DNA of 42,820 bases from Kiritimatiellia bacterium (GCA_045132115.1 JBGURT010000111.1:1-42820), one strand, 5' to 3'. Counted from the first letter of the stretch, positions 1,450 to 36,151 are shown. Numbers and translations: made by a program. Notes: a model not told the origin generated them from the letters alone.

Positions 1450-1476
1450 GGCGAATGTCCTTAACTTGGGGAAATG

Positions 1477-2193: not shown

Positions 2194-2217
2194 CTCTTCG
2201 GTTCCTTTCTTTCGCTT

Positions 2218-20400: not shown

Positions 20401-23400
20401 TCCCTTGCCGCTTACGTAGACATGGCCCTTGCCGATACCTTCCTGGCTGGCGTAAAGCCGGGAAAGTTCATTGTTCGAGTTGCCGCCGGACGGACCAGTC
20501 GCTCTCGTTTTTACTTCCTTGGCGTCCGCCACCTTGAAGTACCAAGTACGCTCGAAGCTACCGATGCCGGAGTCCTTGTCCTTGTCGGCGACCGTGACGC
20601 GAACACGCTTCGTGCCCGGGGACGTGAAGGCGGGCGTAAAGGTTTTGCTGTCGGTGTCGGTGCAGGTTTGAGTATCAGCCGATCCGTCATCGCTCTTCCA
20701 GGTTACGGTCACACCGGCGTCAAGGTCTGCCGCAATATCGTCAATCGAGAATTCGATTGGCTCGCCGGCGCCAATCGCCGCCGCGAACGCATTCGATTCC
20801 GTATTTTCCTCGCCCAGCGAAGTAATCAGCACCGGCTCTACGTTCTGGACGGTGATGACGGTGGGGGTTGAGGTATAGAAATCGCTCCACGGAATGGTCG
20901 GAGCATGCGCAATAGTTGCATTGCCTTCAGTGATAACACTCGGGCTGATCTTCCAGCCCTTGGTGGAGGAGAGCTTGGTGCCGTCGAGCGTATCCAGATA
21001 GAAATTCGCCGTCTTGACGCCAGCAGGAATCGTGGCAACATAATATGCGATAGACGCAGGATCGGTCGTAATGGCGCCGAGCGAATCGTATGCATCGATG
21101 CCGCCCAGGATCAGGACACCCTTCTTGGCGTCAGCGGTACCCGCAGGTGCAAGGGAATCGACCACGATTTTCACCTTCTGTTCTTGAGCGTACGCTTCAG
21201 ACAGGACGATGGACATGCGCGAAGCGTTCTGCCCGACGCTCGTTTCGGCGTAATCCGTAAACCCGCTTTCGGTCGTGATCGAGACCGAAGGACTGTCGTT
21301 CACGACAAGCTTGCAGACGAACTTCTGGCCATAAGCCTTCATGTCCTTGTCTTTGGCCTGGAATGTCAAGGTCACCGTTCCCGGGGCATTGAACGTGTAC
21401 TTTATTTCGTTGGCCGCGTCGTTCGGGTTGCCGTATATTTCATCGTTGTCCGTAACCGCACCGCTGAATTCCCACTTGAGCGCGAACCGCTCATCCTTGT
21501 CCGTGGTGTCAGCATCGTCTGTCGCATCAATATCCTTGGTTACGTCATCGACCATCACCTGGAAGGTCTGCTCGATTCCCTTGGCGACAGACACCTCGAA
21601 AGTTCCGCCGGAAACTTCAACCGCGTTGCCGCCGTTTATCGTAACGCCGGTGATCGCAGGTTCCACATTTTTGGAATACAGCTTCAAAGTCTTGCTCTGA
21701 TAGCCGGTTACAATATTATTCTCGTCGTAATCCTCGGAAGTGCAAAGGACGACCTCATACTGGCAGAGAGTGCCCACGCCCATGCCGCCATCCGGGAATT
21801 CAATATAGCCCGGCTCGGATTCATACTCGCCAGATTCAATCCGCAATCCCTGCGTAGCCGCAGAAGTCGTAACCGGATAACCGGCTGAGGCTTTCTTGGT
21901 TTCATCATTCTTGGGCTTGAGGAATGCGTAAACCGTCTTATTGTAAGACTTGGTCAAAGTTACCTTGACGGGAATCGTGGCTTCGTCCGATTCATCGAAT
22001 GTCGCGCTGGTCACATAGCTGGCGCCACCGTCCGTGCTGACATAAGCCTGCATCGTCGCGGGCTCGGAGATGGATACGGAGACCTGCGCCTCGTTGCTGA
22101 CCACATCGCCGACGGGGGTTTTGACGCGGAAGGTCGTAATGTATTCTCCGGAAGCATAAAGGAGCGACGGGAGTTTGGTCGGGTCTGCCTTGCTTGCCAA
22201 AACCCCCGAAGAATTGAGCACCCAAACGTCAGCGTCTCCGGCGACAAGCGTCTCCCAATCGTTGGCTTCTTCCGTAAGCTTGTATTCGATCGTATAGCCG
22301 GTGGCGGTGTCGGTAACATTCTTGTAGTTGTCGGCGATCGTGAACGAGAAAGTACGCTCGACATTGCCGACGCCCTTGACGCTAGAAGCGGTCGTGAGCA
22401 CCGGAGCCGACGGGACGAGCTTCGCCACATGATGCGAGGGGGTGTAGTAGGTCGCGGCGGCCGCGGGGGAATCGACGGTAACTTTGAAGCGCACGCCGTT
22501 GCCGGTAGTGCTCGTATATTTGTCGGCGCCAAGACCGAAGACATAGATGTTCTTCGTGAGGGAGGTCGTACCGGCCGGGAACGTGAATTGCACCGTATCC
22601 ACATTCAAATAGCTGCCAGCCTCGTTGTCTTTGGCGATATGCACATAATCATAGATATTCAGGCCGGTCGTAGCCGTCGTATTCTGGAACTCCGGCGTCA
22701 CGGTGACGGTGACATCTTCCGTGTAGGCCTCGCTCATCGTGAGCGTCAAGGTGCCGATCGAGCTTTCGTAGTCAGTCCCGACCGTCATGGGGTCTGCGCC
22801 GGTGAGCGTAATTCTGGGCGTGAGCTTCTCGCCCACGACCATCTGTTCCGTCAAGTAGTCTTCTATCAGCAGCGAACCACTGTCGCGCGTCTGGAAACCC
22901 TTGTATTCGCTCAAATAGATGGTGGCCACCTGGCCCTCGGTACCTGCGGCCTGAACCTTGAAGGTATAAGACGATTGTCCCGAAGTAAGCTTGATGGTGC
23001 CGACACTGGCCGTAATCGTGCTTGCGAGATTGACAGGGTTGGCCATCTCAACCGCATCGTCGCCAGCAGCAACCATGACGTCATTTCCGGAAATGATCTT
23101 GATCGCGGCATCGTTATCCGACCAAATATAGAGTTTGGAGGATACGGACGGCGAACCGGTCACTTCAATCGTGAGCGTAGAGTCGCTTGTCGTGGAGTTT
23201 TCATGCACGAGAGCCCAATAGGTATTGCCGCCATAGGTCGTGCTCTGATTGGCAAAGTCCACAGTCTTGACGAGGAACTGGCTCAGGTACATGTCGTAGT
23301 TGCTCGTGCGCGACGGGAACCATTGATCTTGAGCTCCAGTAGTATCTGAAGCAAACATCAGCTGGGCCTCGACCGATTCATCTGCAGTAGAAACGATTTT

Positions 23401-23937
23401 CCATCCCTGCGAGGTGGAGGAATCGTAACCGTTTACAAAATAAATCGCATCGCCACCGTCGACAGGCTCGCCGGCGCCATTCTTGGCAAGGCGGACCGGG
23501 AGAGCGATATCGCCTTCTTTTACGGTATACTTGCAGATGATGTCGGTATAATAAGTATAGCCGGCAGAACCAGGACGAATATCAACGATTTGAGCGCTTT
23601 CGGTCCTTCCGTTTACGACTATGCCTATGCCGGCAGGTCTTGCGGCAACCGCGGTGCTCTCGCTGTAAATCCCAGTAGCATCATACCACTTCCACTTCCA
23701 GTAGGTGGTCGAATTGATGCGATTTACCGCAAAGTCGGGGTTCAAAAGACGCACCGCAAAATAGAACGTCTCGCCGCCGACGAGCGCCTCGGCTTGCGAC
23801 GTAACATAAGGTTCAGCCCCCGCGGTCTGCGTCTCATTATCCCAGGCGCGGATTTCATAGATCGAAGGGATAGTCGTCGCCGATGCGATTCCCGCGAACG
23901 CCGCCGCCAATACCGAGGTAAGGAATTTCATTTTCAT
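5440..23937 (-). CDS. Giant secreted multidomain protein, 6,165 aa, function unknown. It contains PKD-like, TSP3-like DxDxDG and LamG-like elements plus repeated novel modules.
   Basis: The ORF is uninterrupted for 18.5 kb. An SD (AGGAAAA) lies 6 nt before the ATG, and the product starts with a signal peptide (MKMKFLTSVLAAAFAGIASA/TT). The composition is rich in T, D, G, Y and N, with no internal TM segment. Recognisable motif classes are listed as sub-features below. Confidence 0.9.
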   Translation of the reverse strand: MKMKFLTSVLAAAFAGIASATTIPSIYEIRAWDNETQTAGAEPYVTSQAEALVGGETFYFAVRLLNPDFAVNRINSTTYWKWKWYDATGIYSESTAVAARPAGIGIVVNGRTESAQIVDIRPGSAGYTYYTDIICKYTVKEGDIALPVRLAKNGAGEPVDGGDAIYFVNGYDSSTSQGWKIVSTADESVEAQLMFASDTTGAQDQWFPSRTSNYDMYLSQFLVKTVDFANQSTTYGGNTYWALVHENSTTSDSTLTIEVTGSPSVSSKLYIWSDNDAAIKIISGNDVMVAAGDDAVEMANPVNLASTITASVGTIKLTSGQSSYTFKVQAAGTEGQVATIYLSEYKGFQTRDSGSLLIEDYLTEQMVVGEKLTPRITLTGADPMTVGTDYESSIGTLTLTMSEAYTEDVTVTVTPEFQNTTATTGLNIYDYVHIAKDNEAGSYLNVDTVQFTFPAGTTSLTKNIYVFGLGADKYTSTTGNGVRFKVTVDSPAAAATYYTPSHHVAKLVPSAPVLTTASSVKGVGNVERTFSFTIADNYKNVTDTATGYTIEYKLTEEANDWETLVAGDADVWVLNSSGVLASKADPTKLPSLLYASGEYITTFRVKTPVGDVVSNEAQVSVSISEPATMQAYVSTDGGASYVTSATFDESDEATIPVKVTLTKSYNKTVYAFLKPKNDETKKASAGYPVTTSAATQGLRIESGEYESEPGYIEFPDGGMGVGTLCQYEVVLCTSEDYDENNIVTGYQSKTLKLYSKNVEPAITGVTINGGNAVEVSGGTFEVSVAKGIEQTFQVMVDDVTKDIDATDDADTTDKDERFALKWEFSGAVTDNDEIYGNPNDAANEIKYTFNAPGTVTLTFQAKDKDMKAYGQKFVCKLVVNDSPSVSITTESGFTDYAETSVGQNASRMSIVLSEAYAQEQKVKIVVDSLAPAGTADAKKGVLILGGIDAYDSLGAITTDPASIAYYVATIPAGVKTANFYLDTLDGTKLSSTKGWKISPSVITEGNATIAHAPTIPWSDFYTSTPTVITVQNVEPVLITSLGEENTESNAFAAAIGAGEPIEFSIDDIAADLDAGVTVTWKSDDGSADTQTCTDTDSKTFTPAFTSPGTKRVRVTVADKDKDSGIGSFERTWYFKVADAKEVKTRATGPSGGNSNNELSRLYASQEGIGKGHVYVSGKGVLPASAESFNITWNCGTLNSVSLYAFGYQSGAKDDGNLDRKRDWAIDKSGSRESSTTVISDPYEYKSMYDSFFYGWISASEPGGSDYSIRVAPVIGTNTAEVADFILPTAKTDDGNGYVPTFIEAIFSAEYDQFDNMGDIDHDGIPDIFAIKTYANNATLAKTDGAGGELGAVNARNDDNDFLPSTSQLGRSTIVPGSSNSWATAGQAFTAFREIRGLGDGLNYGMFRAYHTGAMARSESEAGWISTLSLTDNEKRSLMRLVLETRDNILNRRYTGRAGTYDGTDWIAVTNILASVIRSGSTAMNPVIQTCYVYDQDAHWECDVEDENYPGITVNRWIVHYDDGTPEGAFVTNILRGASSLYSKSNTVTHAITELGDMNPADTITLDDINFGEWLDGNLLVAGLTGRQQQAAKHFIDLTWRHYAEAGTWGWTCENRTDPMIDDTDGDGMPDGYEYFIWYDAVVGTEGKNRLTGYKFNLDDIESREDIITPETIAGIYNPNINRTWTHQDTDNDGIYDLEEFLIGTSPVHWDSDGDGLSDLYEVIYNVNPLSGGQYQNGAMNLDGDFMAFVHDSHKADGSFADPENLKLPDFAPYTYVYEASDGTYWMLSNSEEATFVEAAWIDPTTNTVKVAGDGFQVFKFKDGWILPTEDTADFINRSGNVAAREFDAVVASGIATNTVSLYHHQVHNYFGFDPRTGWYVGENGTLSSTGRWIGQGIYRAGLPQNTAQFTALDEYLLLKYRYITGVRDIKDDKQKLKDNKITIYGIVQGGTTNPNAAFADLKWGSDTTVFAQRQHGADTDGDGVPDGWELYIGVNPNIDFTIRGDGRDVRYWDGNGIWPAIGENADYEDGLTLVGEYAGNDTCGDYEACPSIYANFPGNKGSMIRGWFNKFFPTDPRNPDTDGDLIKDGLEGAAWNGVYTFNRWGSTQLRTASVKHYSIYGNPTNYSSRCIRGGGYNPCTIDTDLDGLPDPWERQFAGLLFRGAEIPMDGDFENEEYDGTYRVFEVSVPNETFYDDIRAEITAVMGSNLDDWEGVYHVMMGMDGTVADAHSGTYIGAEDVDWDGDGLQNWQEYMVQAMRQFRYDDDKTPLIGSDSPLVSLIGGSGSGSGTITLPRYTVTPGAWCAEGEDGNNRFLKMSYTWPYTKAQLEYVRDELGYKNFADWALECIDNGVDYLGQLGYFADPPKTWDHARIDYDNKYMLPREAVQVYTRYTYSYTSHEWATDEDGNAIFSYPGGGLFTNNVSGTVKETSSGGYSAMIDGKSKKLTRVSTDVDHVEKRLSSLNHETSKVGGVPLYYGTDPRLWDTDDDGMDDYYELFHGLNPILGEVSMSSGTVSSKDVIGRACRLVTPWNNAWTGWDDSAEPGYDPIKFPWMMGVAACDADGDGIRNYEECLLANVTSPGATHTDPTPLWMTDSTVDTISEYIYTSEEEVDEDGEPVWDSNDDGATWFTVTNKVVNYDEDRVEFVTKPSYTALYYGNDISANSKSHYVNGERIATSFPVNMYASDGGWGSGAYDYIASFEENEGYDTDNDWRSDSIEQSGGVEGVEGTSDPQNFADPSRRQSIWFGGPEKPGLAMTVTPNKRHAHGIDLFKQFTVEAWVRPENASAAGDKYVVTRAVNYQGWDLINSNNVVRLNFAIGIDAEGRAFGEMQDSTEVFCRVEGTELVDNKWAHIAATFDGTTLTIYVNGVKCSSTETTLIPANGVEDIKLDPQHLMGEAAEYKAMYAATVIGGRPTDKDIFYAGSNPGQEEIAELATDFLKGSVAEVRIWDGARTASQVESTYKTRFTPEFAAAQRLEVFEAYYNGARRNDQTASRILPAELLHHYDFTTLPGATDAAYVQKVPAGFAANVLAVVRRPDTGETVDDLVEIGWWAKLADSPLASEVYNSRHVVPWIEDTMAHLPRLDGTVKDSVYWSENYAGYTPATDHYGIDQYAFNNTMDPYGNVTYAGQSGTWSYEDEYLWNKFARINNQTNAAINATTAGLTSTLTNDTVFTRFMYRYLRSFRENSDLVPVGSAFAKRQADYWDGQGPEDAWAITTKDGALDGDAGDTGTPDWARPDYSDPEKYAFWLSMGLMPDGTTNPAYVSTVDANLNGIPDWWERYYGVEDCAPTDDPDHDGLTNYQEWLISYGPSPYGYYLRSVVDYAFDPLKARSKGDAVVDYFLAPPVSSAVDAEHVRESEYLGEMVGDHDSMESWWEVLYGLSYANPNVYDPHLDTDGDSWDNFAEARSYAWHGGMNASAVDGYYAGTGSNHYEAHPMPAIGVRATYYGVQDINGASLVVRTSTANKKRVDATFVVKGSNSDDDMQATHMLGTFVNGATAHGILHPGHIIPGSDIKFQSRRIDAEPRYIWDCALSNHVGDESFVERLVSGGFRFIGTYSQYLAHVAAHGIEAEKVVSVSQTYDIFAQTSSDADGHYGLIHLSSSNLTATVVGQIDFTTGEYELDFGAITDAGVDLDHHVIRATYYYHVADRWPKTLWLSDASVAGGSGFLRQGKNTIEAFIDLNENGAYDIGEPYGYVRDVEVGWHKTGKPVVIELTDDSPVFKRIATASGDEGAGNEENTDAATVEEGLTTDVVVRRTEINGQKSTLRIVMKKTVVNDDRAYITEADAIPGAAYDLDLAWLVKDAVKMGLATNEIISATYEIVVNDEVKDTFTREFYQTRAIAKQISPLDTAPVYSAHPTFVFNTEDQTMTAYKLQISTSKNESDTVWESPVEMLPGRTPASLGDPSAFAVQPDVYVGFANPTNGATILKNGANYYWRVALLNAKWASIDDSAWSDWCEFTIDVENALTHPKTTTGYGKAAAVVRYFGPGEVGIADPTNIIVEAFATADFTGLPLARVRMDSTVEDLKVRSSIETNNVAIAGIEAGKVFLRAFIDSNNNGTLEPWESWGYGNNIGRATDFLYTPRAVEVPDSLSVTNSIAIFIEDTDYNQNEIPDILELDCFATQSGSAAAADKDTDLDGLKDAEETELGTIADNWDSDGDGMPDGWEIKFAQTDPLTRDADYVGERDVMAYVVTNLSVAVTAEGKQYVIKPGETGKYYTTFMYNGALAMGAPAEGIVAASVKEVPVTVIHGGVYDIFGFDPTTANPNAIVVSEGNTVYGVNTKEFTALDKYLVVKYLQEFGLANEVEMNTNGTWSASTYRPGFYDSNANGLPDGWELYMGFASANTSKAFPVDTTTIQQGFADTVEAAYDPYDDYYLYKKAVAEGLFVGDLALVPEYKNAEAVAGGYADGTEETLRAYWLAVPENDVMAYWKGVLHTVDIGGVTYVANPSNKVLYTTTEVNGQLIVTGSSTKDYTVDAYDTGVAADVVLIHSAVYDFFGFDPTTAKPGVATVTEGEDGAETTIVQGANTVPFTMIWKKITLASYESAGTDYAALGADVTDSNGNQVADGYELYIRYVNAASKADATIDYVDAVAQDSVKSGYDPYDDYYLYKKAVAEGAYGTETLEAVPEYDNAFAMAMGIAGATVEELDEFWNGVTEEDWCAYVKTNVQIMVVTDQTTGAKTSYAVRPGTQDLYTTFMVGDELFVGVPTTVTLSQGEFQSYITAEATIIHSAVYDWYGWDVTTARPKFFVPDSIEAAVEDTGSEDDSEVAASAAGNNTVAFTRRLKYITDKMYLPLVGAETEYDLTSWYTDTNGNDLPDGWELYVKYSVNSDPAATDDDYKEDFYNGADPNDDDTDDDGINDDDEIDLGTDPADPTDASRYVAGDVMAYAEQSGYVYTVVNDETGETGYVAELTGEGLETGDTLDVERKYLTVYRYGTDTDFVWGAGTDDMTAFGDLSKWRVTGVENNATIAFVHAQVYDLYGFNPNTANPVADPSVNTKEFTNLDKALVKKYFAAIGLTDASSAILKAGTNDTNLDGIPDGWELYTMFGPAGVSAARGTATTDWQISPWITAADARDKSRTVGGELTLVDEYDRGSNPTDPWQVDTDDDGISDAIALRYMIKGSDGLDDYDNDGLSNYAEYLLSEVFDVDGKKFDARNAYSANTYCLDYFYKIGKLYVGEIFTDHDQVEDSWEDQYASDYATRLKYDAGTDADDDGWSMRSEARYSQMVQPIIGSRKSHVNTVEDTVIDHPVPTLALTVSYNEADIHDVEDSKLLVYVTRNGSNAEFDAKFIVDGGTNSTSTAATSNAYAKVLGKWENRHAVGTLTPGNVKAKSIVIEDAYTPDNTLFSWRLSYVDSDGETQYVYRTGTKAEYLEDYYNYGKDTVDIVKPDSEYHPLSTMSIRTDGDIATVYMNDALTIEFGTINLVTGEYDFDFGALAGKSIWSVSDTNAKTPAEAHTYRVVYDVNPSADLPRTVYLGEATKGAIKEGKSQVIAILDTDGDGLYTPGEPMGVACDVDIGWKGGAAAIQLTRTSPVSVRADLVTGDNDREATWGKWSENLDEDTYEEAGSFGRFVRVRVVRSYYNGRAYTANDTTKVVDDRVVNISGELGKFIHEGWFMGNGKFDIDWDLAADTEGIVDENSDDIDIRDVVYRIVFGNGDIEKVTTASLSNTVSVARYSFIRAFDPAGMRSVAVAVEPTEQAGYRVTDARPTFRWTMTKRAGTYTAFRIVVTGEGFSYNSGFQQMPLENAEGEYVWTAPICVGDKIDGEHGYGVYANNKEYTWTVYGYNSKYKTDENGGSGKFLLNVAENNIAMRTQGVKVRYFGPVAADAATIRVQAFTKPDFTGEPVAAGYVTGLATLGDAGEVPDNATIVGIEPGTYYFRAFIDSNDNGVCDDWESMGYLCARGLIGAVPFNPTGVKYSAGVLGEGDSIEIYIEDADTNGNSLPDAYEYAQASDAQKADGSWRTNTPLDAITTDSEGIGFIYSTDLATLAAGGAGTATSGMAPVLLAAAPAAGSGASTVAMASQVVSTLSNPKIAALTFGYDTIEEAKAAAETIADSSVIAITSLDIDTVAKSVKIGYTSEVETLTAGSSASAFYVVEGGTVSFDVKVLYKANLGDADWTVAEVKDTVEVGTSSGVIEYPLPAAATNAQFFKIEITH
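6065..8295 (-). repeat. Super-repeat B (~743 aa) of the giant protein, paralogous to 11575..13760
   Basis: It carries, in the same order as super-repeat A, the landmarks DADDDGWSMRSEARYS, HPVPTLALTVSY, IAILDTDGDGLYTPGEPMGVACDVDIGW, RPTFRW, VKVRYFGP, RAFIDSNDNGVCDDWESMGY and IYIEDADTNGNSLPD. Confidence 0.6.
10076..10126 (-). repeat. 51-nt perfect direct repeat, copy 1 (encodes YDPYDDYYLYKKAVAEG)
   Basis: I aligned ccctccgcaaccgccttcttgtagagatagtagtcgtcgtacggatcgtag base by base against 10775..10825. The two copies are identical, and the flanking bases differ. Confidence 0.95.
10775..10825 (-). repeat. 51-nt perfect direct repeat, copy 2 (offset 699 nt, in frame, 233 codons)
   Basis: The string is the same as at 10076..10126. 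Confidence 0.95.
11575..13760 (-). repeat. Super-repeat A (~730 aa) of the giant protein, paralogous to 6065..8295
   Basis: It shares an ordered set of landmarks with super-repeat B. These are D.DGDSW..FAEARSY, P.P..(G/A)(V/L).(A/V).Y, EAFIDLNENGAYDIGEPYGYVRDVEVGW, a P(T)F.(F/W) Fn3-like block, VRYFGP and RAFIDSNNNGTLEPWESWGY, ending in IFIEDTDYNQNEIPD. Bounds are approximate. Confidence 0.6.
15030..15650 (-). other. LamG / concanavalin-A-like jelly-roll domain (about aa 2765-2970 of the giant protein)
   Basis: The segment FTVEAWVRPENASAAGDKYVVTRAV ... NKWAHIAATFDGTTLTIYVNGV ... GSVAEVRIWDGARTASQVE follows the typical Laminin_G_3 pattern (FT.E.WV ... W.H.A.T.DG..L.LYVDG ... DEVRIW..ARS). Confidence 0.6.
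15781..19080 (-). other. Region dense in thrombospondin-type-3-like calcium-binding motifs (DxDxDGxxDxxE)
   Basis: Examples are DDTDGDGMPDGYEY (19041-19080), DTDNDGIYDLEE and DSDGDGLSDLYE (about 18770-18890), and DTDGDGVPDGWELY (about 17950-18010). Others are DTDGDLIKDGLE, DTDLDGLPDPWE, DWDGDGLQNWQEY, DTDDDGMDDYYE, DADGDGIRNYEE and DTDNDWRSD (15781-15822). Confidence 0.65.
20525..21560 (-). other. Two PKD-like Ig-fold domains inside the giant protein (approximate bounds)
   Basis: The segments YTFNAPGTVTLTFQAKDKDMKAYG (about 21300-21400) and FTSPGTKRVRVTVADKDKDSGIGS (about 20540-20640) match the PKD pattern Y.F..PG.Y.V.L.V.D..G. Confidence 0.45.
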
Positions 23938-23949
23938 GGTGCTTTTCCT

Positions 23950-24342
23950 TTACTTAGAGATTCTCTGTCTGATCATTTCCCGCGAACGGGCCGCCTGTGC
24001 TTCGATCGCCGCGTTGGCGTTCTCGCACTGCTTGTACAAATCGTTCCAAACCGGATTTTTCTCGAGCTCGGCCTTGATCGCTTCGTCGGTCGCGCCGGGC
24101 ATCTGCGCCTTCATGTCGTCAATCATCTTCTCCATTTCCGCGACAACCATGGCGCGTCCGCGCATGAGATTGCCGCGCTCGGCGATGGCGGCATCGATCT
24201 GCGCACGATATACGGGGTCTTCAAGACGGTTCTCGACCCCGGAACCCTGCGGCTCCTGCTCTTCATCGCGGCTGCAACCGGTCCATACGGCCGCGCAAAC
24301 CGCCGCCGCCAAACAAAATCCCGTTATTCTCTTCATCGTCAT
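23950..24342 (-). CDS. Small predicted lipoprotein, 130 aa, helical, function unknown
   Basis: I start it at MTMKRITGFCLAAAVCAAVWTGC. It has a signal peptide and a lipobox-like WTGC, followed by a charged, helix-prone sequence. The ATG at 24340-24342 overlaps the TGA (24339-24341) of the upstream 2.4k-aa gene as ATGA. Its stop lies 12 nt before the giant gene ATG. The 158-aa track ORF is an upstream extension. Confidence 0.7.
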   Translation of the reverse strand: MTMKRITGFCLAAAVCAAVWTGCSRDEEQEPQGSGVENRLEDPVYRAQIDAAIAERGNLMRGRAMVVAEMEKMIDDMKAQMPGATDEAIKAELEKNPVWNDLYKQCENANAAIEAQAARSREMIRQRISK

Positions 24343-27300
24343 GGAGTAGGTTCTTCGTAGTATATGTAGTTTTTCGGTTTCAAGACAGAAGGCGCCTGCG
24401 GACGCATATTCCCGTCGATTCTCCAACGGTAGAACATGGAGTTGGACAAATTCCAGAATTCATCCCAGCCTTCGTAGGCGCCAGGCGTGCCCTGCAGACG
24501 CTGGTCTGGGATATCGATAACCGAGCAATGGGCGGCATCGAACGAGGTGGATTCGCGCCCGTTGCCGCTAAAGACAAACCACCTTACCGGGATGAACCCG
24601 ACATTGAACTTGTAGCCGTTGTTGATCATGGCGGTTACCTTGAAGGTCACGCTGGTCCAGGCACCGCCGGAGAGATCCTGGGAGTTGGAGCCGGGTTCAA
24701 GGCCGCGCAAGACATACGGCGACCAGATTTCCGCAGCGTCATTTTCGTTGGTGACGGCCATGTAAATCGTTATCAAGGCATTTTCGGCGTTGCGCGTGAT
24801 GGAGGGGCCGTCGGCGGTGACTTTTTCGGTCACGCTCTTGTTGTATCGCGTCAGATCCTTCATGCCGGCGGTGAGATGAAGGCCGCCAACGGTCGGGTCC
24901 ATATCAAACCAATACATCGTAGTGACATCGAGATTCGTGTGGAAATTGCCATTGTAGGAGTGGAACTTCGCGAGGCGGATCTCGCCGTCGGAGTTGGCGA
25001 AGGACGACCCGTCGAGACGCTTGCCGGCTACCAGCCAGTCGAGAACCGCAGGCGTGTAGGCATTGTTTTCCGTAAGGCCGTAGCCGCCGTCTTCGATACT
25101 CTTCGTGAGTTCGCTCCAAGGCCGTGCCGAGGCCACCACATAGACCGCATTGCTCACGCCTTTGCCCACGTTGATCTCCACCGTGCCCTGCCTGCCGGAG
25201 GCTTCTGCAAGCGCAACGGTATTGGTCGTCACGGAATCGATTTCAAAGTAGTTGCCCACCTTGTAGGTGATGTTGGTGCCGAATTCGGAGCCCTTTTGCA
25301 CGAGCACCATGACCGTATCCGTCGTTTCGGTCGCATCTCCCACAGTCTGCTTGAGGTAAGCAGCGGAATCAGGGTCGATCTCGCAATAGATTATCACCGA
25401 AGCACCGGACGGCGTGGGCGGATCGCCCGGCAAAACCTGCCCCGCGTTGATGCTACCCGGGGTCTTCACGATTTCCTTGCTCCAGTTCTCCTCCACCGAG
25501 CCGTTGGAATTCGTGACCGAAAGCGAATTCAACTTGTTGCCGTTGTCGTAACCGACCGAGAACCATTTCGTGCCGTAAATGCCCTGGTTTTCCGCATCCT
25601 CAGTGAGTTTACGGACCATATTGGTGGTGGAATATTCCCACGCAATCGCAGACGGCGTTCCGCTCCGGCGCGCAATCGCCTCGTAGCCGTCGGTGCCGCC
25701 CAGGACGACCTGCTCTTCTATCACGTCGGAAGCGCGAACAAGCTGGATCGCAACCGGATTGAACTCGCCATTGTAGGTGCCGTCTTTGCTGAAGGTGAAA
25801 TCGCCATCGCTCGGCGCCGTCCATTTCCAGATGCCGTCGCGCTCGCCGGCCGATTCGTTTAGCGACGCAAGGGAACGCGGAGAGGCGACATTGAGGAACG
25901 CAAAGCCTTGGGTGATGTTCTTCGTCTTGCTCGCCTTGGCGTAGCCGCTGCCGATAGCGCCGTCGTCGTCCGTAAATCTCACAATCGTATTCGTATGGCC
26001 CTGGAGCGTAATGACATCAAGGTGCCACCCCTCGATGCTCTGGGCGGCGGGAATCGCGACTTCAATATACTGGTTCGTCTGATCGATATTGACAACGCTG
26101 TCTACAGTGTCCTCGCCGTAGGCGTTCACTTCATTGATCCAAGCCCAGCCCGGGGCGATGGCGTCGAGAATCGTGTACGCAGACTTGCCGTTCATGCCGG
26201 CGAACTTCTTGTTGTAGTCTACGCCCAAATACCACTCCGGCTTCACCCACTCGCCGGAAACATTGAGGAACTGCTCGTCCACCGGCGTCTCGGAATCCTT
26301 GAGATAGTAGGTGACAGAGAGCATATACTGGACGATTTCCAAGCTCTTCGTCGTGGCTGCAAAAATCGAGGACGGATTTTCCTTGAACGAGCTGCGGAAG
26401 ATGTACTCGCCTTCGGCGCAGTCTTCGCATTTGACCAGCTCTTTGACCCCGGCAGGCGCTGCCGCCCAGTTTTCGTAGCCCCATGGCATCTGGTCGTTCA
26501 GGTAATAAACGCGGACGGTAATGCCCCTGTCGAAGTCGATTTCTTCCGAGAGAGCGGTGGCGTAGACTTCCGCTTGGATGCCCCAATCTTCGCCTGCGAG
26601 CGGCTGCTCGCTTTCGCGGTCGGCATAGTCGAGCTGGTCGAGCGTGTCCAGACCGCTGCGGAAGGCCATGATATTCTTGAAGCCGAGTCTCGGGACGATC
26701 GTTTCGGCGATGGAGACGTTGTCGATCACGACACGTACGACATTGTCGGGGACCTCGCCGCCGTTCATCCCGTTCGCGCCGGGAACGCCAATGACCGCAA
26801 GGCGGTAGGCGCGGTAGCTGCTGCCGGTGGTGCGGTAGGTGAAGTTGGTGAAGACGTCGCACCCGACATCGAAGTGCGTTACATACCGCCACATGGAATC
26901 GTTGGCGTTGGCGTCGGTCGCGCCATAGACGGTGACGCGCGCGGTGACATCCGGCGAATTATCGTAGCGCCGCGCCTTGAACGAAAGTTCGCCAACGGTC
27001 GGGGTGCCGTCGCCGGTGTCGACGAACGTAGGCGTCTGCAGGAACGGCAGATGCTGTGGATATTCGTCAAGATCTTCTGCCGCTACATTCTCCGTGACGG
27101 AGTTGTTGAGCGCGACCGACTGGCCGAAGTCCTCGAGGTTCACGGTCGAGCCGTCGGCCAAGTACTGGAGATAGCAGTCGTCACGCTCGTGTAGGAAGCC
27201 GCCCGTCCTGAGGTTCCAGCCCCACCACGCCGCAGTCGAGACCTCCGGGTCGTCGCGGAAGAGAATCTGGGTGATGAAGATGCTGCCATAGACGCCATTC

Positions 27301-30300
27301 CGCGCGGCGGCGGCGGCCTTGACCGTTTCCGGATCCATGACGATACGCATCATGCCCTTAACGCCGTGAAGCCCAAGGTAATACGACGCTACGCCGCTGG
27401 AGGATTTGAGCGGAATGCCGTCGGTCCGCGCGGAACCGACGAAATTGGTCACCGTCGTCCAATACGTCGTATCGTCGGCGGAAGCCACAGTAGCGGCGCG
27501 CACGCTCGTGAGCGCGGTATCGTTCGTGGCAATCTGCAAGAGAAGGTTGACGTTTTCGTTGCAGTTGGTGTAAGAAAAGGCGATCATGCCGAGGCCTGTG
27601 CCGCGTTCTATGCCCAAGGAGGTTTCGCCGTCGAAAAGCGGCGAGCGGAGCGAAACGACGCTCGCGGTGCCGTTCGTGGCCGCACGCGAAGCGCTAAGCT
27701 CGACGCTGTGCGGATGGACGACTTCCTCTTCTTCGTTCGTCGTTTCATGCACCCAAGCAGTCGTGTAGGCAATCGTCATCGGTGCGCCTGTCGTACCGTA
27801 TTTGCCGAAGTAGCCGGTGTCGCTCGTGTAGTCGTCGCCGCGCCACTGGGTGAAGGAGAAATAAGAGAGGACAATATCGGCGCTCGTCACGTCTTCTTCG
27901 TTGCCGGTGCGGACTTCCAAGGAGGCGTCGGCAGGCCAGTAGACGTCGAACGAACCTTCCTCGAGCGCAAAGCTGGAGATGGTGTTCGTGGCTACGGGAA
28001 TAAAGTCGTTGCTGCCGGAAGCGGCGATGCCGAGGATGATCTCCTGCTCAAGATCTGCGCACTTCAATCCCCAGTTGGTCCCCGCAAGATCTTCGGATTC
28101 TTTATCGACATTGTATGGCTCCATGCGATTATAAGCCGAATCCCAGAAACCGCCATGGAGCGAATCGTACATCCGCGAGACCGTGCCTTCCATATTCACC
28201 GTCTGACCCTGGTTGTAACTTACCTGATTAAGATCCGTCCAAGGATAAATATTGTTCTTGGTGTCCGCACTGCCGCGTGCATGGCCGGTGAAGAACTGCG
28301 GACGCGCAAAACGCGCCGGGCAGTTGGCGCTCGTTACGCCACAGGAGCCGGCCGTAAGACGTGCAGAATCGGCATCGTTGTAGATGAGCGTATTGTAGGT
28401 GCGCCCACTCAAGTCCTCCGCGAGCGCGCAAGTGCCGTTTTTCTGGATGCCGGCGACAATGTGTGTAGCTCCCTCGATAACCGAGGAATCCGCCGAAATG
28501 AAGATCGCCGGGAAGCGGAAGTTGCCGTTGCCGATATCGACATCGAACGCATAGGCGGCTGAAATGTTTTCTTTCGAACCAAGAAGCGTAGACGAAACCT
28601 TGCGACCGGAGACCGTCCAACGATAGAGCTCAAGGTTGTAGTGGTTGCCCTCGGAGCAGTTGGTGACGCGGAATTCGTAGCACCCCTTGCTAGGATGGTA
28701 ATACGCAACAAGCGAGAGCGAAGCGGTACCATCGTGCTTTTCGGTAAGATACCCCATCACCGCGCGAACGCCAAAGGTGTAGTTCGTGGCCGCAAATGGA
28801 TTGCCATAGGCACTGTTGACGGCATCATCGGAAAGGCAATAGATGAAATCGTCAAAGTCGATCGCCTGCGCGAGACGCGCGGTGTAGGATACGGTCCCGA
28901 TGCCGCGCGGAGTTTCCGCGGCATTCACAAATTCCAGCGAACCCTTGCCGCCGCCGTCGAGTTGCAAGGCATAAGCCGTGCCCGTCTTGTACTTGGCGTG
29001 GGTCCATTGTCCTTGATGCGCCTGAAGGCCCTGGGGAGTCTTTCCCTTGTTGAAATGTTTGTAGAGCTCGTAACCGTCTGGTTTGGTTTCACTTTTCATC
29101 TCGAGCGGAAACTTTTCGGTCCAGTAGTCGCTCGTGGCCGACATCGCCGCCCAGCCGTCAAAATAGGTGGAGTAGGTCTTCTGGGCGTTGGAAACGCCCC
29201 TCAGGGAGTCGGCATCGGTCGAAGAACCCACGAATGTCTCTTCGCCCAGGTTCGCATCGCTCCAACCGTTGAAATTCTGGAAATCGGCGCGGGAAATCAT
29301 TACCATGCCGTCGTCCTCAACATACTGGAAGCGCAAGTATCCGGTCTCTTCGCCGTACTCGATATCAAACCAGGCGTTGTCGCCGCTAGTGATGGTGGAA
29401 AGTCCGTTTATCGTATCGGGCCACTTGGAATAGGACCAATCGCCTTGGTGGAGATAGTTCGTCGTGTTGTTCTTGTCCACCGTGCGGAACCTCACCTGGC
29501 AAACGCCCTTGGTGGAATTGGTCACGGCCGGCATGAACGCATTCCAGGTAAGATCGCCGACAATCGTACCATAGTATTCGGCCGTCGCGCTCGAGGACGA
29601 AGTAGCGCGCATCTCCACATCGAAGCGCTTCAAGTCCGATTCGCCGTCGCGCAGACGCGTAAAGTAGTCGGTGCCGCCGGAAGCAAGGCGCGAAGCGGTC
29701 GTCGACCGGCGCGCGAGCATCGTGGCGAGGCGCTCGAAATCTTCGTCTATCCACTCCACATCCAGCCCCGTAAAGTCCACATAGCGGTAATACGGAGCGT
29801 CGACATTGGCCGTATAGTAGTATTCGATGTCGCCCGGCAAGGCGGAGCAGGAATCGTCGATTGGCTCGCCCACGAGTTCGCCATCCGTCTCGGTCATGTC
29901 CACGGACAAAAAGCCGCCGTCATGTTCGCCCTCTACCTTCGCGAGGAAATGGGTGTAGTTCCTGTTGTAGTTGGGCTTGGCGAGGTCTGCGTCTTTCACG
30001 CGCACGGCGTAGACTAGCGAAGGATCGGCTAGCGCCGACGGGTTGACGACGCGCATGTTCGGCGCCTCGGAGATTTCCGTGCCGTATTGGTCGAAGAACT
30101 TGATGTCGTACTTCGTCTCCGTGCGGACCTCGAGAACGGGATCGAAATCGTAACGGAGAATCCACGAGCCGTCCGGGTGCTTGCCGCGGCTGGAATAGAC
30201 GCCGTCGCCGTTGAGCCGCTTGGAGCGCGTCCCGTTGACCTCGATGTACTGCACGATGCCGGCGGTGTCATAAGAGGTATTGCCCAAGACGATCGCGCTC

Positions 30301-31529
30301 ATCCGGACGGTGCGGTTGGTGAAAGTGGCGTCTACCGCCGGGATATCGAGCGTCGCGCCCGAAAGTTTCGCCTGGGAGCTCGTCGCCGTCACGGAACTCG
30401 CTGCGAGTTCCATAGTGCCGCCGATGAGTTGCTGGGCGAGATAACGCCAGCGATAGTGGAAAGTCGCGTCAGAAACCGTCACTTCGTCGGCCGGGGCGCC
30501 TTCGGGCACGATGCGCTCCACCGTCGCCACCGGCTTAAGCCCCGTCACGCCGAAGCGCGGCATCGGCGCGTCGAGGAACGTCCCCGACCAACCGACAACC
30601 TGTTCGCCCGTAAGTTCGCTTTCGAAGGTGCCGCCCGGGATGAGCGTCGCCGTGCCCGCCGGATAAGAGCAAATCACATTGTCCACAATCACCATGCCGG
30701 AAGTCTCGAGTTTTTCGCCGTCGTGGTCGTTGCGCTCGATCTTGAAGCGCGCCGGACCGCGGTAGTTCACGAACTTCGGGTCGTTGAGCATGATGCGGTA
30801 GAAATTCCCGGTCGAGCCGCCGGCGGTCATCGCGAGCGTGATGTTGTCGTCGAGTGCCACCAGCGACGACGCGACATCCACCACCCCGTTCGTGATTGCC
30901 ACGACGTCCACGAGCGCACGCTGCCATTCGGCATCGGCCTCGGTCGTTCCGTTCGTGGAGACATAGAGCGCGATATAGTTTGGCGTAGCCGTGGAGAAGT
31001 TCACCGCATCGAAATAAATGCGGCCGATGCCGGAGGAATACAACGGCGAAACGATGCGCGGACGGTCGTCCGGATCGTCGGCATTGATCATCACGATCTG
31101 CCCGGCGTCACGCTGGGAGCGGGCACGCGATGCGGAATTGGTGAACGCCATCGCGGTGTCGTTTTTCCACGGCAGATAGTTGGAATCAGGGCCCAGCACA
31201 TTGCCGGAAACATTGAAAGTGTTGCCCAGACGCACATTCTTCAAATGCCAGAGATTTTCGCCGGACGGATTGAAATAAAATTCCGTCCCGGGCATGAGGT
31301 TGTAGTTCACGTCCTCGACCTCGCGCTCGTTCACACGCGTCCACGCGGTGCTGTCGTAACCTTGGCCGCTCACCGGGCACGAGTCGATTATGTCATCGTT
31401 CGCAAGGAGCAGGCGATCCGTCCCAAGCGTGGAATAAGACGCCCCAACCGTGGTCAGCGAACCGCCAACCACAGCCAAAAATAGCGCTAACACGGCCTTC
31501 ACACGCATATTGAAGGTGAAATTCCGCAT
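24339..31529 (-). CDS. Large secreted protein (~2,396 aa from ATG 31529, or 2,389 aa from ATG 31508), function unknown, with a lamin-tail-like domain
   Basis: The ORF is uninterrupted for 7.2 kb and begins with a signal peptide (MRNFTFNMRVKAVLALFLAVVGGSLTTVGA/S). The track start at 31571 is a TTG that forms the -35 hexamer of the promoter, so the true start must be downstream. I see no SD for either ATG, which leaves the start uncertain. Confidence 0.85.
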   Translation of the reverse strand: MRNFTFNMRVKAVLALFLAVVGGSLTTVGASYSTLGTDRLLLANDDIIDSCPVSGQGYDSTAWTRVNEREVEDVNYNLMPGTEFYFNPSGENLWHLKNVRLGNTFNVSGNVLGPDSNYLPWKNDTAMAFTNSASRARSQRDAGQIVMINADDPDDRPRIVSPLYSSGIGRIYFDAVNFSTATPNYIALYVSTNGTTEADAEWQRALVDVVAITNGVVDVASSLVALDDNITLAMTAGGSTGNFYRIMLNDPKFVNYRGPARFKIERNDHDGEKLETSGMVIVDNVICSYPAGTATLIPGGTFESELTGEQVVGWSGTFLDAPMPRFGVTGLKPVATVERIVPEGAPADEVTVSDATFHYRWRYLAQQLIGGTMELAASSVTATSSQAKLSGATLDIPAVDATFTNRTVRMSAIVLGNTSYDTAGIVQYIEVNGTRSKRLNGDGVYSSRGKHPDGSWILRYDFDPVLEVRTETKYDIKFFDQYGTEISEAPNMRVVNPSALADPSLVYAVRVKDADLAKPNYNRNYTHFLAKVEGEHDGGFLSVDMTETDGELVGEPIDDSCSALPGDIEYYYTANVDAPYYRYVDFTGLDVEWIDEDFERLATMLARRSTTASRLASGGTDYFTRLRDGESDLKRFDVEMRATSSSSATAEYYGTIVGDLTWNAFMPAVTNSTKGVCQVRFRTVDKNNTTNYLHQGDWSYSKWPDTINGLSTITSGDNAWFDIEYGEETGYLRFQYVEDDGMVMISRADFQNFNGWSDANLGEETFVGSSTDADSLRGVSNAQKTYSTYFDGWAAMSATSDYWTEKFPLEMKSETKPDGYELYKHFNKGKTPQGLQAHQGQWTHAKYKTGTAYALQLDGGGKGSLEFVNAAETPRGIGTVSYTARLAQAIDFDDFIYCLSDDAVNSAYGNPFAATNYTFGVRAVMGYLTEKHDGTASLSLVAYYHPSKGCYEFRVTNCSEGNHYNLELYRWTVSGRKVSSTLLGSKENISAAYAFDVDIGNGNFRFPAIFISADSSVIEGATHIVAGIQKNGTCALAEDLSGRTYNTLIYNDADSARLTAGSCGVTSANCPARFARPQFFTGHARGSADTKNNIYPWTDLNQVSYNQGQTVNMEGTVSRMYDSLHGGFWDSAYNRMEPYNVDKESEDLAGTNWGLKCADLEQEIILGIAASGSNDFIPVATNTISSFALEEGSFDVYWPADASLEVRTGNEEDVTSADIVLSYFSFTQWRGDDYTSDTGYFGKYGTTGAPMTIAYTTAWVHETTNEEEEVVHPHSVELSASRAATNGTASVVSLRSPLFDGETSLGIERGTGLGMIAFSYTNCNENVNLLLQIATNDTALTSVRAATVASADDTTYWTTVTNFVGSARTDGIPLKSSSGVASYYLGLHGVKGMMRIVMDPETVKAAAAARNGVYGSIFITQILFRDDPEVSTAAWWGWNLRTGGFLHERDDCYLQYLADGSTVNLEDFGQSVALNNSVTENVAAEDLDEYPQHLPFLQTPTFVDTGDGTPTVGELSFKARRYDNSPDVTARVTVYGATDANANDSMWRYVTHFDVGCDVFTNFTYRTTGSSYRAYRLAVIGVPGANGMNGGEVPDNVVRVVIDNVSIAETIVPRLGFKNIMAFRSGLDTLDQLDYADRESEQPLAGEDWGIQAEVYATALSEEIDFDRGITVRVYYLNDQMPWGYENWAAAPAGVKELVKCEDCAEGEYIFRSSFKENPSSIFAATTKSLEIVQYMLSVTYYLKDSETPVDEQFLNVSGEWVKPEWYLGVDYNKKFAGMNGKSAYTILDAIAPGWAWINEVNAYGEDTVDSVVNIDQTNQYIEVAIPAAQSIEGWHLDVITLQGHTNTIVRFTDDDGAIGSGYAKASKTKNITQGFAFLNVASPRSLASLNESAGERDGIWKWTAPSDGDFTFSKDGTYNGEFNPVAIQLVRASDVIEEQVVLGGTDGYEAIARRSGTPSAIAWEYSTTNMVRKLTEDAENQGIYGTKWFSVGYDNGNKLNSLSVTNSNGSVEENWSKEIVKTPGSINAGQVLPGDPPTPSGASVIIYCEIDPDSAAYLKQTVGDATETTDTVMVLVQKGSEFGTNITYKVGNYFEIDSVTTNTVALAEASGRQGTVEINVGKGVSNAVYVVASARPWSELTKSIEDGGYGLTENNAYTPAVLDWLVAGKRLDGSSFANSDGEIRLAKFHSYNGNFHTNLDVTTMYWFDMDPTVGGLHLTAGMKDLTRYNKSVTEKVTADGPSITRNAENALITIYMAVTNENDAAEIWSPYVLRGLEPGSNSQDLSGGAWTSVTFKVTAMINNGYKFNVGFIPVRWFVFSGNGRESTSFDAAHCSVIDIPDQRLQGTPGAYEGWDEFWNLSNSMFYRWRIDGNMRPQAPSVLKPKNYIYYEEPTP
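25690..26150 (-). other. Lamin-tail-domain (LTD)-like segment in the 2.4k-aa protein (approximate bounds)
   Basis: The segment WINEVNAYGEDTVDSVVNIDQTNQYIEVAIPAAQSIEGWHLDV ... AIQLVRASDVIEEQVVLGG fits the LTD pattern (INEV ... E(W/Y)IE(L/V) ... (L/I).GW.L ... L.L.d..g.v.d.V.yG). Confidence 0.5.
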
Positions 31530-31542
31530 ACTACTGTCAGAT

Positions 31543-31571
31543 ATGATACCAAAAATTTCCGCATAAGTCAA
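31543..31571 (-). promoter_or_regulatory. Sigma70-type promoter of the giant-gene unit: TTGACT - 17 nt - TATCAT
   Basis: The minus strand reads TTGACTTATGCGGAAATTTTTGGTATCAT. The -35 is at 31566-31571 and the -10 at 31543-31548, with TGG immediately upstream of the -10 (extended -10-like). It lies in an AT-rich island within a GC-rich genome and is the only sizeable intergenic gap upstream of the giant module. Confidence 0.7.
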
Positions 31572-34984: not shown

Positions 34985-36151
34985 TTAGAAATCCAGTCCC
35001 GCATCGTCGAACGCACCGTCGTCGGAGGAGCCGGAACCGGCATCGGCGTCATCGCCGCCTTCATCGCCGGCGCTGCCGCCGTCATCCTCGTCGATGTCGA
35101 TATCGACGATATCGGTATCGGACGCGGCCGCGGCACGCTCCTTGGCTTCTTGCTCGGACTTGTCGTCTTTGTCCTTCTGGTGCTCGGAACCCGTAGTCTC
35201 ATGATGGTTTTCGGCGAACCAATAGCGATCCTTGCGGTCGCCGTTGGTGTCGAAAGTCATGATGGTGACGGCAAGATTCTCGCCTACCGCGGGAACCGCG
35301 CGGTGAATGCGCACTGCGGTCTTGGGCGAAAGGAGCCAATCGGCATAGCGGTGCTCCGTGGTCTTCTCGCGGGTATCGAGGTCTATCGCCTCCCAAAGGC
35401 CGACGTCAAGCTTGACGGCGAGATCGCCCGCTTTGCCGTAGAGGCCGGTGAAAAGGAGGTCCGAAGAACTGCGGATGACAAACCCTTGCGAAGCGCGAAG
35501 GTTCAAGACGTCAAAGTGACGGCCCTTGACGGACATATTGCCCGTAAGGCACTTGATGAAGCACCTGTCGCCGTCGCCGGTCTTCTCGTACTCGTAGCGG
35601 GATTCGCCGGCGGCGTTCACGACGGTAAAGCCCGGGGCGGAAACGAGAATCATGTCCTCCGGCATGCTGCGCGGAAGATTGACGTTGATCTTGCCGGACT
35701 TGAGTTCTATCGTGCGGGTTTTGACGTCCAGACCCTGCGACACGGTCGCGAAGGAAGAATCGCCCTCGACCAGCACTTCAACCTTTGGGCCAAGACGGAT
35801 CTTGGCCGTAGAGGCCGCGCCGACGGTGCGGAACGCGGTCCCGAGCGGATAAAACCGCCCTTCTTCCGCATCGCGCCATTCGGTCTGGGTTGGAGCAAGC
35901 GCTTCGCACTTGCCCTCGTATTGATGGCAAAGCGACAAGACGTAGTAGAGCTTTTCCGGCGCCTTGCTCTTTTTCTGAGCGGCGGCCTCTTCGCCTTCTT
36001 CGTCTTCTTCGGCCTCTTCTTCATCGCCATCGGCGGCTTCTTCGGTTTCCTCCGCCTCTTCGCCGTCGCCCATGAGGTCCGAAAGGTCCTCATCCTGCGC
36101 GTGCACGGCGAAGCAAGCCGCCGCCGCCACGGCAAAAATCAGTTTTTTCAT
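34985..36151 (-). CDS. Secreted hypothetical protein with poly-acidic N- and C-terminal tails (388 aa)
   Basis: It begins with the signal peptide MKKLIFAVAAAACFAVHA/Q. The first ~45 mature residues and the last ~70 residues are dominated by D, E and G, and the core is beta-rich. Its ATG (36149-36151) overlaps the galK TGA as ATGA. Confidence 0.6.
   Translation of the reverse strand: MKKLIFAVAAAACFAVHAQDEDLSDLMGDGEEAEETEEAADGDEEEAEEDEEGEEAAAQKKSKAPEKLYYVLSLCHQYEGKCEALAPTQTEWRDAEEGRFYPLGTAFRTVGAASTAKIRLGPKVEVLVEGDSSFATVSQGLDVKTRTIELKSGKINVNLPRSMPEDMILVSAPGFTVVNAAGESRYEYEKTGDGDRCFIKCLTGNMSVKGRHFDVLNLRASQGFVIRSSSDLLFTGLYGKAGDLAVKLDVGLWEAIDLDTREKTTEHRYADWLLSPKTAVRIHRAVPAVGENLAVTIMTFDTNGDRKDRYWFAENHHETTGSEHQKDKDDKSEQEAKERAAAASDTDIVDIDIDEDDGGSAGDEGGDDADAGSGSSDDGAFDDAGLDF

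Follow-up and report, generated by a model that had tools for sequence, protein, structure and literature searches.

A 2,396-residue secreted chain of predicted β-sandwich modules encoded with a lipoprotein and a giant protein in gut Kiritimatiellia

Very large modular surface proteins are already known as a kind. The gingipains Kgp and RgpA and the protein HagA of P. gingivalis (3m1h, 3km5, 4itc) are large secreted surface proteins whose repeated Ca-binding jelly-roll modules serve binding, not catalysis. Their cleaved-adhesin domains, the sub-repeats of reelin and carbohydrate-binding modules (CBMs) are related Ca-binding, galactose-binding-like jelly rolls, and reelin strings many jelly rolls into a rod (PMC4882317). 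The RTX adhesins LapA, SiiE and MpIBP, secreted by type I secretion systems, are very large, repetitive, Ca-dependent β-sandwich surface adhesins of diderms. Tandem genes for very large secreted β-rich proteins occur in Apilactobacillus kunkeei (Giant1-5; PMC12863079), and large or giant proteins have been described in the Planctomycetes-Verrucomicrobia-Chlamydiae group and in Omnitrophota (bioRxiv 10.1101/2023.11.21.568195; PMC12057145); such genes take up an appreciable part of the genome, and their products are read as having surface or interaction roles. Here we describe a gene at positions 24339-31529, minus strand, of a 42,820-nt stretch of DNA from a Kiritimatiellia bacterium (GCA_045132115.1 JBGURT010000111.1:1-42820), referred to below as the window. 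The gene encodes a secreted protein of 2,396 residues, the target of this study, and is followed by genes for a small lipoprotein and for a second, giant protein. An earlier note on the window, made from the sequence alone, had proposed much of this layout.

The gingipains and HagA are the best high-confidence structural neighbors of the target. In contrast to them, the target has no sequence or hidden Markov model (HMM) similarity (Pfam Cleaved_Adhesin was unmatched), no protease domain and no C-terminal domain of the type IX secretion system; it comes from a different phylum, and its repeats have drifted much further apart. MAM domains (meprin, the LAST-MAM astacin, RPTPmu), reelin sub-repeats, CBM22 and CBM32 have the fold class in common with the target at Foldseek probabilities of 0.9-0.99. 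However, template modeling (TM) scores to MAM-containing chains are low (0.15-0.22 per target), Pfam MAM is unmatched, and the conserved MAM disulfide pattern of four cysteines is absent, because only C1070 among the 18 cysteines of the target is near-invariant. The bacterial lamin-tail domain (LTD, PF00932) has an N-terminal motif in common with one segment of the target, [IV]NE ... (E/Q)[FY][IV]E[LV] ... [LIM]xGW, but this segment is ~165 residues long compared with ~110, and its second half aligns only at relaxed settings. Unlike the RTX adhesins, the target has an N-terminal Sec signal peptide and neither a match to an RTX-type repeat family nor the motif D-x-[DN]-x-[DN]-G; no ABC, MFP or TolC genes were found among the neighbors scanned. 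The giants of A. kunkeei and the other phyla belong to unrelated families with unrelated domain sets, the CASH, Rhs and peptidoglycan-hydrolase domains reported for them are not present here, and in our locus a small conserved lipoprotein gene lies between the two large genes. Literature searches covering giant or surface proteins of Kiritimatiellia, RFP12, Gly_rich_2 and DUF2341 gave no description of the target family. The fold class is ordinary; what is new is this particular repeated module, the probable cryptic LTD and the conserved partnership with a lipoprotein and a giant.

The reading frame claimed in the earlier note is borne out. On the minus strand the frame stays open between 31571 and the TGA at 24341-24339, with an ATG at 31529, and 24339-31529 is a genuine gene for a secreted 2,396-residue protein of a gut Kiritimatiellia bacterium. 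Large size and secretion, also claimed, are supported; the N-terminus, MRNFTFNMRVKAVLALFLAVVGGSLTTVGA followed by SY, is on inspection a predicted Sec signal peptide. Relatives of the target have the same n-region, h-region and A-x-A layout at their N-termini, and a prepilin-type leader was found in none. The layout of the protein was derived from family alignments, from profile-profile comparison with hhalign and from AlphaFold2 models of residues 36-1235 and 1197-2396, each computed from a 34-sequence alignment (confidence is given as the predicted local distance difference test, pLDDT). The features are, in order from the N-terminus:

24339-31529, minus strand: the target gene including the TGA stop, encoding the secreted multi-domain protein (full-length relatives at 39-82% identity; patchy metatranscriptome contigs)
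31440-31529, minus strand: predicted Sec signal peptide, residues 1-30, cleavage after VGA (inspection of the translation)
30630-31424, minus strand: block A, residues 36-300, β-sandwich with SPLY...GIGRIYFDAVN and a near-terminal VIVDNV strand (pLDDT mostly 85-93; hhalign)
30330-30629, minus strand: residues 301-400, small β domain with an invariant YRWRYL motif (family alignment and model)
29850-30329, minus strand: residues 401-560, β domain with a QYIEV motif, inserted only in the ~2,400-residue subfamily (alignment occupancy 0.29-0.33; model)
29280-29849, minus strand: residues 561-750, β-sandwich domain (alignment and model)
28275-29279, minus strand: block B with its conserved N-terminal lead-in, residues 751-1085, GIGTVSYTARL (alignment, model, hhalign of B with D)
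27825-28274, minus strand: residues 1086-1235, β domain whose last strand, TDVVIDxV in the family consensus, is like the closing strand of block D (hhalign to D 22-58%)
27240-27782, minus strand: block C, residues 1250-1430, SPLF...GLGMIAFSYTN...IATN...SIFITQILFRD (model; hhalign of A with C)
26694-27239, minus strand: block D with its lead-in, residues 1431-1612, WWGWN...TPTF...VGELSFKARR...VVIDNVSI (model; hhalign of A with D)
26295-26693, minus strand: residues 1613-1745, β domain with conserved EQPLxGExWG, EID and PWGYxNW motifs (pLDDT ~88-93)
25680-26198, minus strand: LTD-like β-sandwich, residues 1778-1950, PGWAWINEVN...QYIEVAIP...GW...QLVR (motif in 67 distinct copies; hhalign)
24342-25679, minus strand: C-terminal region, residues 1951-2396, with β domains, a short stretch of helix and a long β-hairpin of two strands (alignment and model)

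In order to determine whether the four blocks named in the earlier note are related, a 56-sequence alignment of the family core was cut into 14 segments and 90 segment pairs were compared using hhalign. Four of the five best pairs fall among blocks A-D (hypergeometric p ~3e-5 over the 90 pairs). Blocks A and C matched at 86% (E=5e-6), A and D at 26%, rising to 66% over 170 columns once the boundaries took in the conserved lead-ins, C and D at 12%, and B and D at 45-54% over 14-22 columns. With extended boundaries A and C align along the whole module, SPxY...G[IL]GxIxF...ATN...W...closing [VI]x[VI]DN[VI]. From these scores and the whole-module alignment we therefore take blocks A, C and D to be diverged copies of one family-specific module, judged by profile similarity, while B is linked more weakly; of the four related blocks proposed, three stand at the profile level and the fourth is less secure. 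A fifth segment, residues 1086-1235, has only the closing strand in common with the repeat module. Self-BLAST of the target revealed no internal repeats, which are visible only at the profile level, and HMMs of the module gave no match outside the target family among all other open reading frames (ORFs) of 85 sequences (84 loci and the window), the giant included.

The motifs on which the proposal had been based are all where the earlier note placed them: GIGRIYFDAV at residue 167 (31002-31031), GIGTVSYTARL at 876 (28872-28904), GLGMIAFSYTN at 1312 (27564-27596), VGELSFKARR at 1512 (26967-26996), VIVDNV at 280, VVIDNV at 1600 and WINEVN at 1797 (26124-26141). In 20,000 composition-preserving shuffles, G[IL]G.[IV].[FY], present three times in the target, had a mean of 0.021, and V[VI][VI]DNV, present twice, a mean of 0.0008. 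These figures flatter the motifs because the patterns were picked post hoc, and the all-against-all comparison is the stronger, independent test. The G-x-G strand had been called an opening strand, which is a misnomer: it lies mid-domain, coming after about nine other strands in the block A model.

In the 56-member alignment, 175 of the 2,396 positions are near-invariant. W, G, P, N, R and Y account for most of them, and they occur along the whole length, a pattern typical of structural conservation. Among the most conserved stretches of the family are residues 751-839 (29013-29279; HADYQNFNxWxDA...FVGxST) and 1431-1507 (27009-27239; WWGWNxRTxG...ALNNSV...PFVQTPTF), both modeled at pLDDT <50; the first immediately precedes the G-x-G strand of block B and the second that of block D. 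Judged from block A, they probably form the N-terminal halves of the block B and D jelly rolls; they could instead be partner interfaces. The insert at residues 401-560 matched the LTD-like block at 9.6% and genuine LTDs at 0.1% using hhalign, despite its QYIEV motif, which resembles that of the LTD-like block. No hydrophobic anchor, RTX repeat or PEP-CTERM motif was found in the C-terminal region, residues 1951-2396. The modeled β-hairpin within it (residues ~2217-2261; 24747-24881) has two strands of ~20 residues each and lies in a variable, indel-rich stretch.

No enzyme or adhesin family had been recognized in the protein by the earlier note, and database searches agree. Neither Pfam nor NCBIfam at E<=1 nor PHROGs gave a match anywhere in the 2,396 residues; Laminin_G_3 (PF13385), MAM (PF00629), Cleaved_Adhesin (PF07675) and CBM models are among those unmatched in Pfam. 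A search of PDB sequences with the target or the family profile gave nothing relevant, the profile yielding Gly-rich low-complexity matches that come from the N-terminal extension of relatives. Every block was also compared by hhalign with Laminin_G_3 and DUF2341 profiles made from the long relatives, at <=2.7%. The earlier note had suggested structure prediction in segments followed by Foldseek. Both half models (mean pLDDT 79.9 for residues 36-1235 and 77.5 for residues 1197-2396) are almost wholly β and contain a dozen or more separate sandwiches. Against the PDB, the gingipain K1-K3 cleaved-adhesin domains were matched at probability 1.0 (TM 0.44-0.54 per target), the MAM domains of meprin and LAST-MAM at 0.95-0.99 and GH16 jelly rolls at 0.94-0.99, although TM scores to GH16 were only 0.34-0.43. 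CBM22, a CBM32-derived nanoCLAMP, reelin repeats, factor V/VIII chains and the EphB6 ectodomain were also matched with high probability. No catalytic fold stands out among these matches. The models thus point to a jelly-roll β-sandwich fold in the target, with the assignment to individual blocks being our reading of them. The MAM/ConA-like jelly rolls proposed for the four blocks are in this way supported by the neighbors of the predicted structure (MAM, cleaved-adhesin, CBM and GH16 domains) and not by profile searches of the blocks.

The claim of an LTD-like segment also held in part. Pfam LTD gave no match in the full target at E<=1; among member segments it matched one of 25, at E=0.055 (noise level), and none of 67. 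As reference we used 120 PF00932-annotated proteins retrieved with a consensus-like seed, of which 58-69 entered hhalign. The 67-sequence LTD-like block matched these genuine LTDs at 87-90% (E 1.5-4e-6), confidently over the first 39-40 columns only, which carry INE ... (E/Q)[FY][IV]E ... GW. The match is specific to residues 1778-1950, since 13 other blocks gave <=2.7%. INE ... E[FWY][IV]E[LV] ... GW is present in the target and in 66 other distinct copies, all retrieved by this motif, with N, E, E and W invariant. At relaxed settings the remainder follows in the expected strand order, with F.V..SP set against YLVV and QLVRxSGIVEHxIV against L.L.D..G..VD.V.Y. The model of the segment has ~9 strands at pLDDT 85-90 over residues 1784-1944; lamin tail is absent from the top 50 PDB Foldseek matches of the 1,200-residue query. 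A profile of the segment found 357 representatives among 1.84 billion proteins; among the 150 matches listed, all are consistent with members of the target family, full-length or fragments, and in the full-length matches listed the LTD-like domain lies ~600 residues from the C-terminus. Residues 1778-1950 are probably a strongly diverged, enlarged LTD.

The target is the first of three genes that lie close together. Its two partners in the window are:

23950-24342, minus strand: 130-residue lipoprotein with a VWTGC lipobox and, after it, a charged helical region (54 of 64 loci have a homologue)
5440-23937, minus strand: 6,165-residue secreted giant carrying PKD and Laminin_G_3 domains and 13 TSP3-like Ca-binding motifs (60 homologous ORFs downstream of relatives of the target)

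The stop codon of the target overlaps the start codon of the lipoprotein exactly as the earlier note had it, in an ATGA at 24342-24339 (...CCATGACGATG). Stoichiometric co-production of the two proteins, which had been deduced from this overlap, goes further than the overlap allows; at most, an ATGA of this kind points to translational coupling. The ATG of the giant lies 12 nt past the lipoprotein stop and is preceded by AGGA. Together, 24339-31529 and 5440-23937 give an operon of ~26 kb. The giant has 13 DxDxDGxxDxxD TSP3-like motifs and one Pfam match each to PKD and Laminin_G_3; its C-terminal 3,082 residues have no Pfam match, its self-BLAST found no internal repeats, and BLAST showed no similarity between target and giant. 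Metatranscriptome contigs show many skip joints in the giant, which suggests related variants or cryptic repeats.

This gene order is conserved in most, not all, of the family. Among 71 loci with >=1.5 kb of downstream sequence, 58 have a giant ORF starting within ~600 nt of the target stop, most of these running >3,000 residues to the end of the fetched locus, and 60 downstream ORFs are homologous to the giant of the window. In most loci a small ORF lies between target and giant. Homology to the lipoprotein of the window was found for 54 of 64 such ORFs, which have lipoboxes and helical charged bodies, many overlapping the target stop by 1-11 nt. In a few loci (L005, L012 and L021) the giant follows the target directly. 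The earlier note had asked whether orthologues always precede a small lipoprotein and a giant: this is the rule, with exceptions in about a fifth of the loci. In about a dozen loci a ~810-1,016-residue protein or unrelated genes take the place of the giant. In the most distant relatives (L004:20851-23325, L060, L076, L080 and L084), a ~810-1,016-residue protein without Pfam domains replaces both lipoprotein and giant; the one in L080 has a lipobox-like signal. This protein may be an alternative partner. The flanks of the module are housekeeping genes that differ between lineages, and therefore the three-gene module itself is the conserved unit. In the window it adjoins housekeeping genes such as def, alaS, dnaA, dnaN and gidA, and no mobile-element or phage genes are among the neighbors scanned or listed. 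Four further sizeable ORFs of the window have no Pfam match at E<=0.001: 412-1464 (plus strand, 350 residues), 1474-3360 (plus, 628 residues), 34985-36151 (minus, 388 residues) and 40627-41997 (minus, 456 residues).

A protein search returned 36 relatives, none of them characterized. Ten are ~2,400 residues long and 39-82% identical to the target over the full length, while the others are mostly 2,700-3,650 residues long with an N-terminal extension of up to ~1,500 residues carrying Gly_rich_2, DUF2341 and Laminin_G_3. The sole name given to a family member in the source databases, 'glycine-rich domain-containing protein', is attached to one relative and most plausibly reflects its Gly_rich_2 domain, which the protein of the window does not have. 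A scan of one genome per GTDB species gave 112 relatives, with 27-42% identity between species. For the 78 loci retained, the sources are gut, rumen or faecal metagenome-assembled genomes (MAGs) labeled Kiritimatiellia, Verrucomicrobia or Lentisphaerae and a few implausibly named bins, and the window DNA is present in sequencing runs of gut and bovine gut metagenomes. Members of the family occur only in Kiritimatiellia-type MAGs from gut and rumen. The implausible bins are named Lachnospira hominis, Azospirillum sp., Anaerovoracaceae, Faecalibacterium sp., Barnesiella, Gemmiger, Muribaculaceae, Methanomethylophilaceae and Clostridiales (L017, L025, L044, L059, L062, L064, L072, L077 and L084). 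The contigs with the gene in these public MAGs are most likely mis-binned rather than cases of horizontal transfer.

A promoter ahead of the first gene had also been claimed, and a site that fits by consensus match is present:

31543-31571, minus strand: sigma-70-like promoter TTGACT-17 nt-TATCAT with TG extension (consensus only, 10/12 matches)

The site, read from 31571 to 31543, is the best of four such sites in 10 kb, and four is no more than shuffles give. Its -10 element ends 14 nt before the ATG of the target, and no Shine-Dalgarno sequence is visible. The mRNA leader may be very short, or translation may begin at Met8 (ATG at 31508; MRVKAVLALF...), a possible alternative start because the promoter leaves so short a leader before Met1. 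The Met8 start would give a more typical signal peptide. In three bovine gut metatranscriptomes, contigs cover patches of the target and the giant, and one contig spans the junction of target and lipoprotein (24109-24471). Contig depth is ~1-8 on the module compared with 40-54 on the neighboring acetate kinase gene, although contig depth is a poor measure of expression. The contigs are consistent with a transcribed operon; they are unstranded, and DNA carry-over is possible.

We believe, with moderate confidence, that the target is a non-catalytic, Sec-exported chain of binding-type β-sandwich modules that works at the cell surface together with the lipoprotein and the Ca-binding giant. An undescribed surface binding complex is the most likely reading because the protein is a β-sandwich chain without an enzyme signature and its gene is nearly always accompanied by those of a lipoprotein and a giant. 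The mature protein of ~2,370 residues would consist of at least a dozen β-sandwich modules in a row, of which three or four (A, C, D and more weakly B) would be copies of one jelly roll of galactose-binding-like, MAM or cleaved-adhesin type, and one a highly diverged lamin-tail-like β-sandwich. Target, lipoprotein and giant would be made from one transcript, the target being translationally coupled to the lipoprotein. The three proteins most likely assemble into a cell-surface or extracellular complex, with the lipoprotein as its likely membrane tether and with target and giant as multivalent binders of glycans, particles or other cells of the gut. Outer-membrane export, the physical association of the three proteins and ligand binding are inferred. 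Several observations weigh against this proposal. The target has no recognizable outer-membrane secretion or anchoring signal, and about a fifth of its relatives have no giant downstream. Because Foldseek gave no query ranges, a jelly-roll fold is not proven for every single block. Jelly-roll folds house enzymes too, as the GH16 probabilities given above illustrate, and the conserved stretches at residues 750-835 and 1431-1507, which are not confidently modeled, could hide a functional site.

Unlikely, but the best of the other explanations, is that the target serves the giant as a dedicated factor for assembly, export or docking, that is, a platform or chaperone-like protein and not an adhesin itself. 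Its position, almost always immediately upstream of the lipoprotein and the giant, fits such a role, as do the conservation along the whole length and the two conserved low-confidence segments, which could then contact the partner. In two relatives, moreover, the module directly follows a pseudopilin-type cluster (type II secretion system or type IV pilus-like): the regions upstream of P0019 (L005:1-10004) and P0030 (L006:1-9803) have N_methyl and T2SSG-type pseudopilin genes and a ~1,000-1,100-residue protein of no known family. These clusters may hint at an export route. Prepilin motifs were found upstream in only four of the 85 sequences, within a limited upstream flank, and not in the window; the link is not general. 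Some relatives, furthermore, have no giant to assemble. A lectin-like β-sandwich array of 2,400-3,600 residues is unlike known chaperones or ushers, and the long relatives add surface-type Gly_rich_2, DUF2341 and Laminin_G_3 modules at the N-terminus.

We are a little more doubtful that the target is a structural coat, an S-layer-like or fibrillar envelope component without a specific ligand. The module is lineage-wide, sits in the core genome and takes up ~26 kb; its proteins diverge fast between species (27-42% identity), as exposed envelope proteins do, and the giant has Ca-binding TSP3 motifs. However, no S-layer or SLH-type domains were found, and S-layer genes are usually among the most highly expressed, whereas contig depth on the module, poor measure of expression as it is, stays well below that on the acetate kinase gene.

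The Foldseek matches raise the question whether the target is a carbohydrate-active enzyme or a protease that has diverged beyond the reach of HMM libraries, for instance a GH16-like glycosidase; we consider this improbable. Besides the GH16 1,3-1,4-β-glucanases (0.94-0.99), multi-domain enzymes of the GH101, GH43 and sialidase types were matched, and Kiritimatiellia are described as glycan degraders. The GH16 signature E-x-D-x(x)-E, however, occurs three times in the target and is conserved at these places in only 5-30% of the 56 members; Pfam, NCBIfam and PDB sequences gave no match at E<=1; TM scores to GH16 are low; and the enzyme matches are explicable by their non-catalytic β-sandwich modules. 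An origin in a phage tail, in a host-specificity (gpJ-like) protein or in a related injection device is very improbable: the tail-tip proteins of lambda, T1 and SU10 and numerous phage minor-tail and tail-fibre models are among the Foldseek matches, but the PDB probabilities for the tail-tip proteins are 0.04-0.18, PHROGs gave no match, the BFVD fold search returned generic tail proteins with CUB, FN3, F5/8C and ConA-like β-sandwich arrays and nothing specific, and the neighbors scanned or listed are housekeeping genes without phage functions.

Going beyond a surface binding complex, it is conceivable, though we think it rather unlikely, that the three-gene module encodes an undescribed surface organelle of the gut and rumen Kiritimatiellia lineage, whose building blocks would be a new, repeated jelly-roll module together with a cryptic LTD and which would attach the cells to host mucus, plant particles or other microbes. 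If so, the organelle would be a lineage-defining colonization apparatus and more than another adhesin. Gut and rumen Kiritimatiellia are common in MAG surveys; to our knowledge, host-associated members have few or no cultured representatives and little functional characterization. The operon is kept in most species genomes in which the family is found, and its first gene has no library annotation over 2,396 residues. The new repeated β-sandwich module and the probable LTD variant, both missed by current HMM libraries, could become family models. If the module does encode a surface binding complex, it would be a prime candidate for the attachment and persistence of gut Kiritimatiellia.

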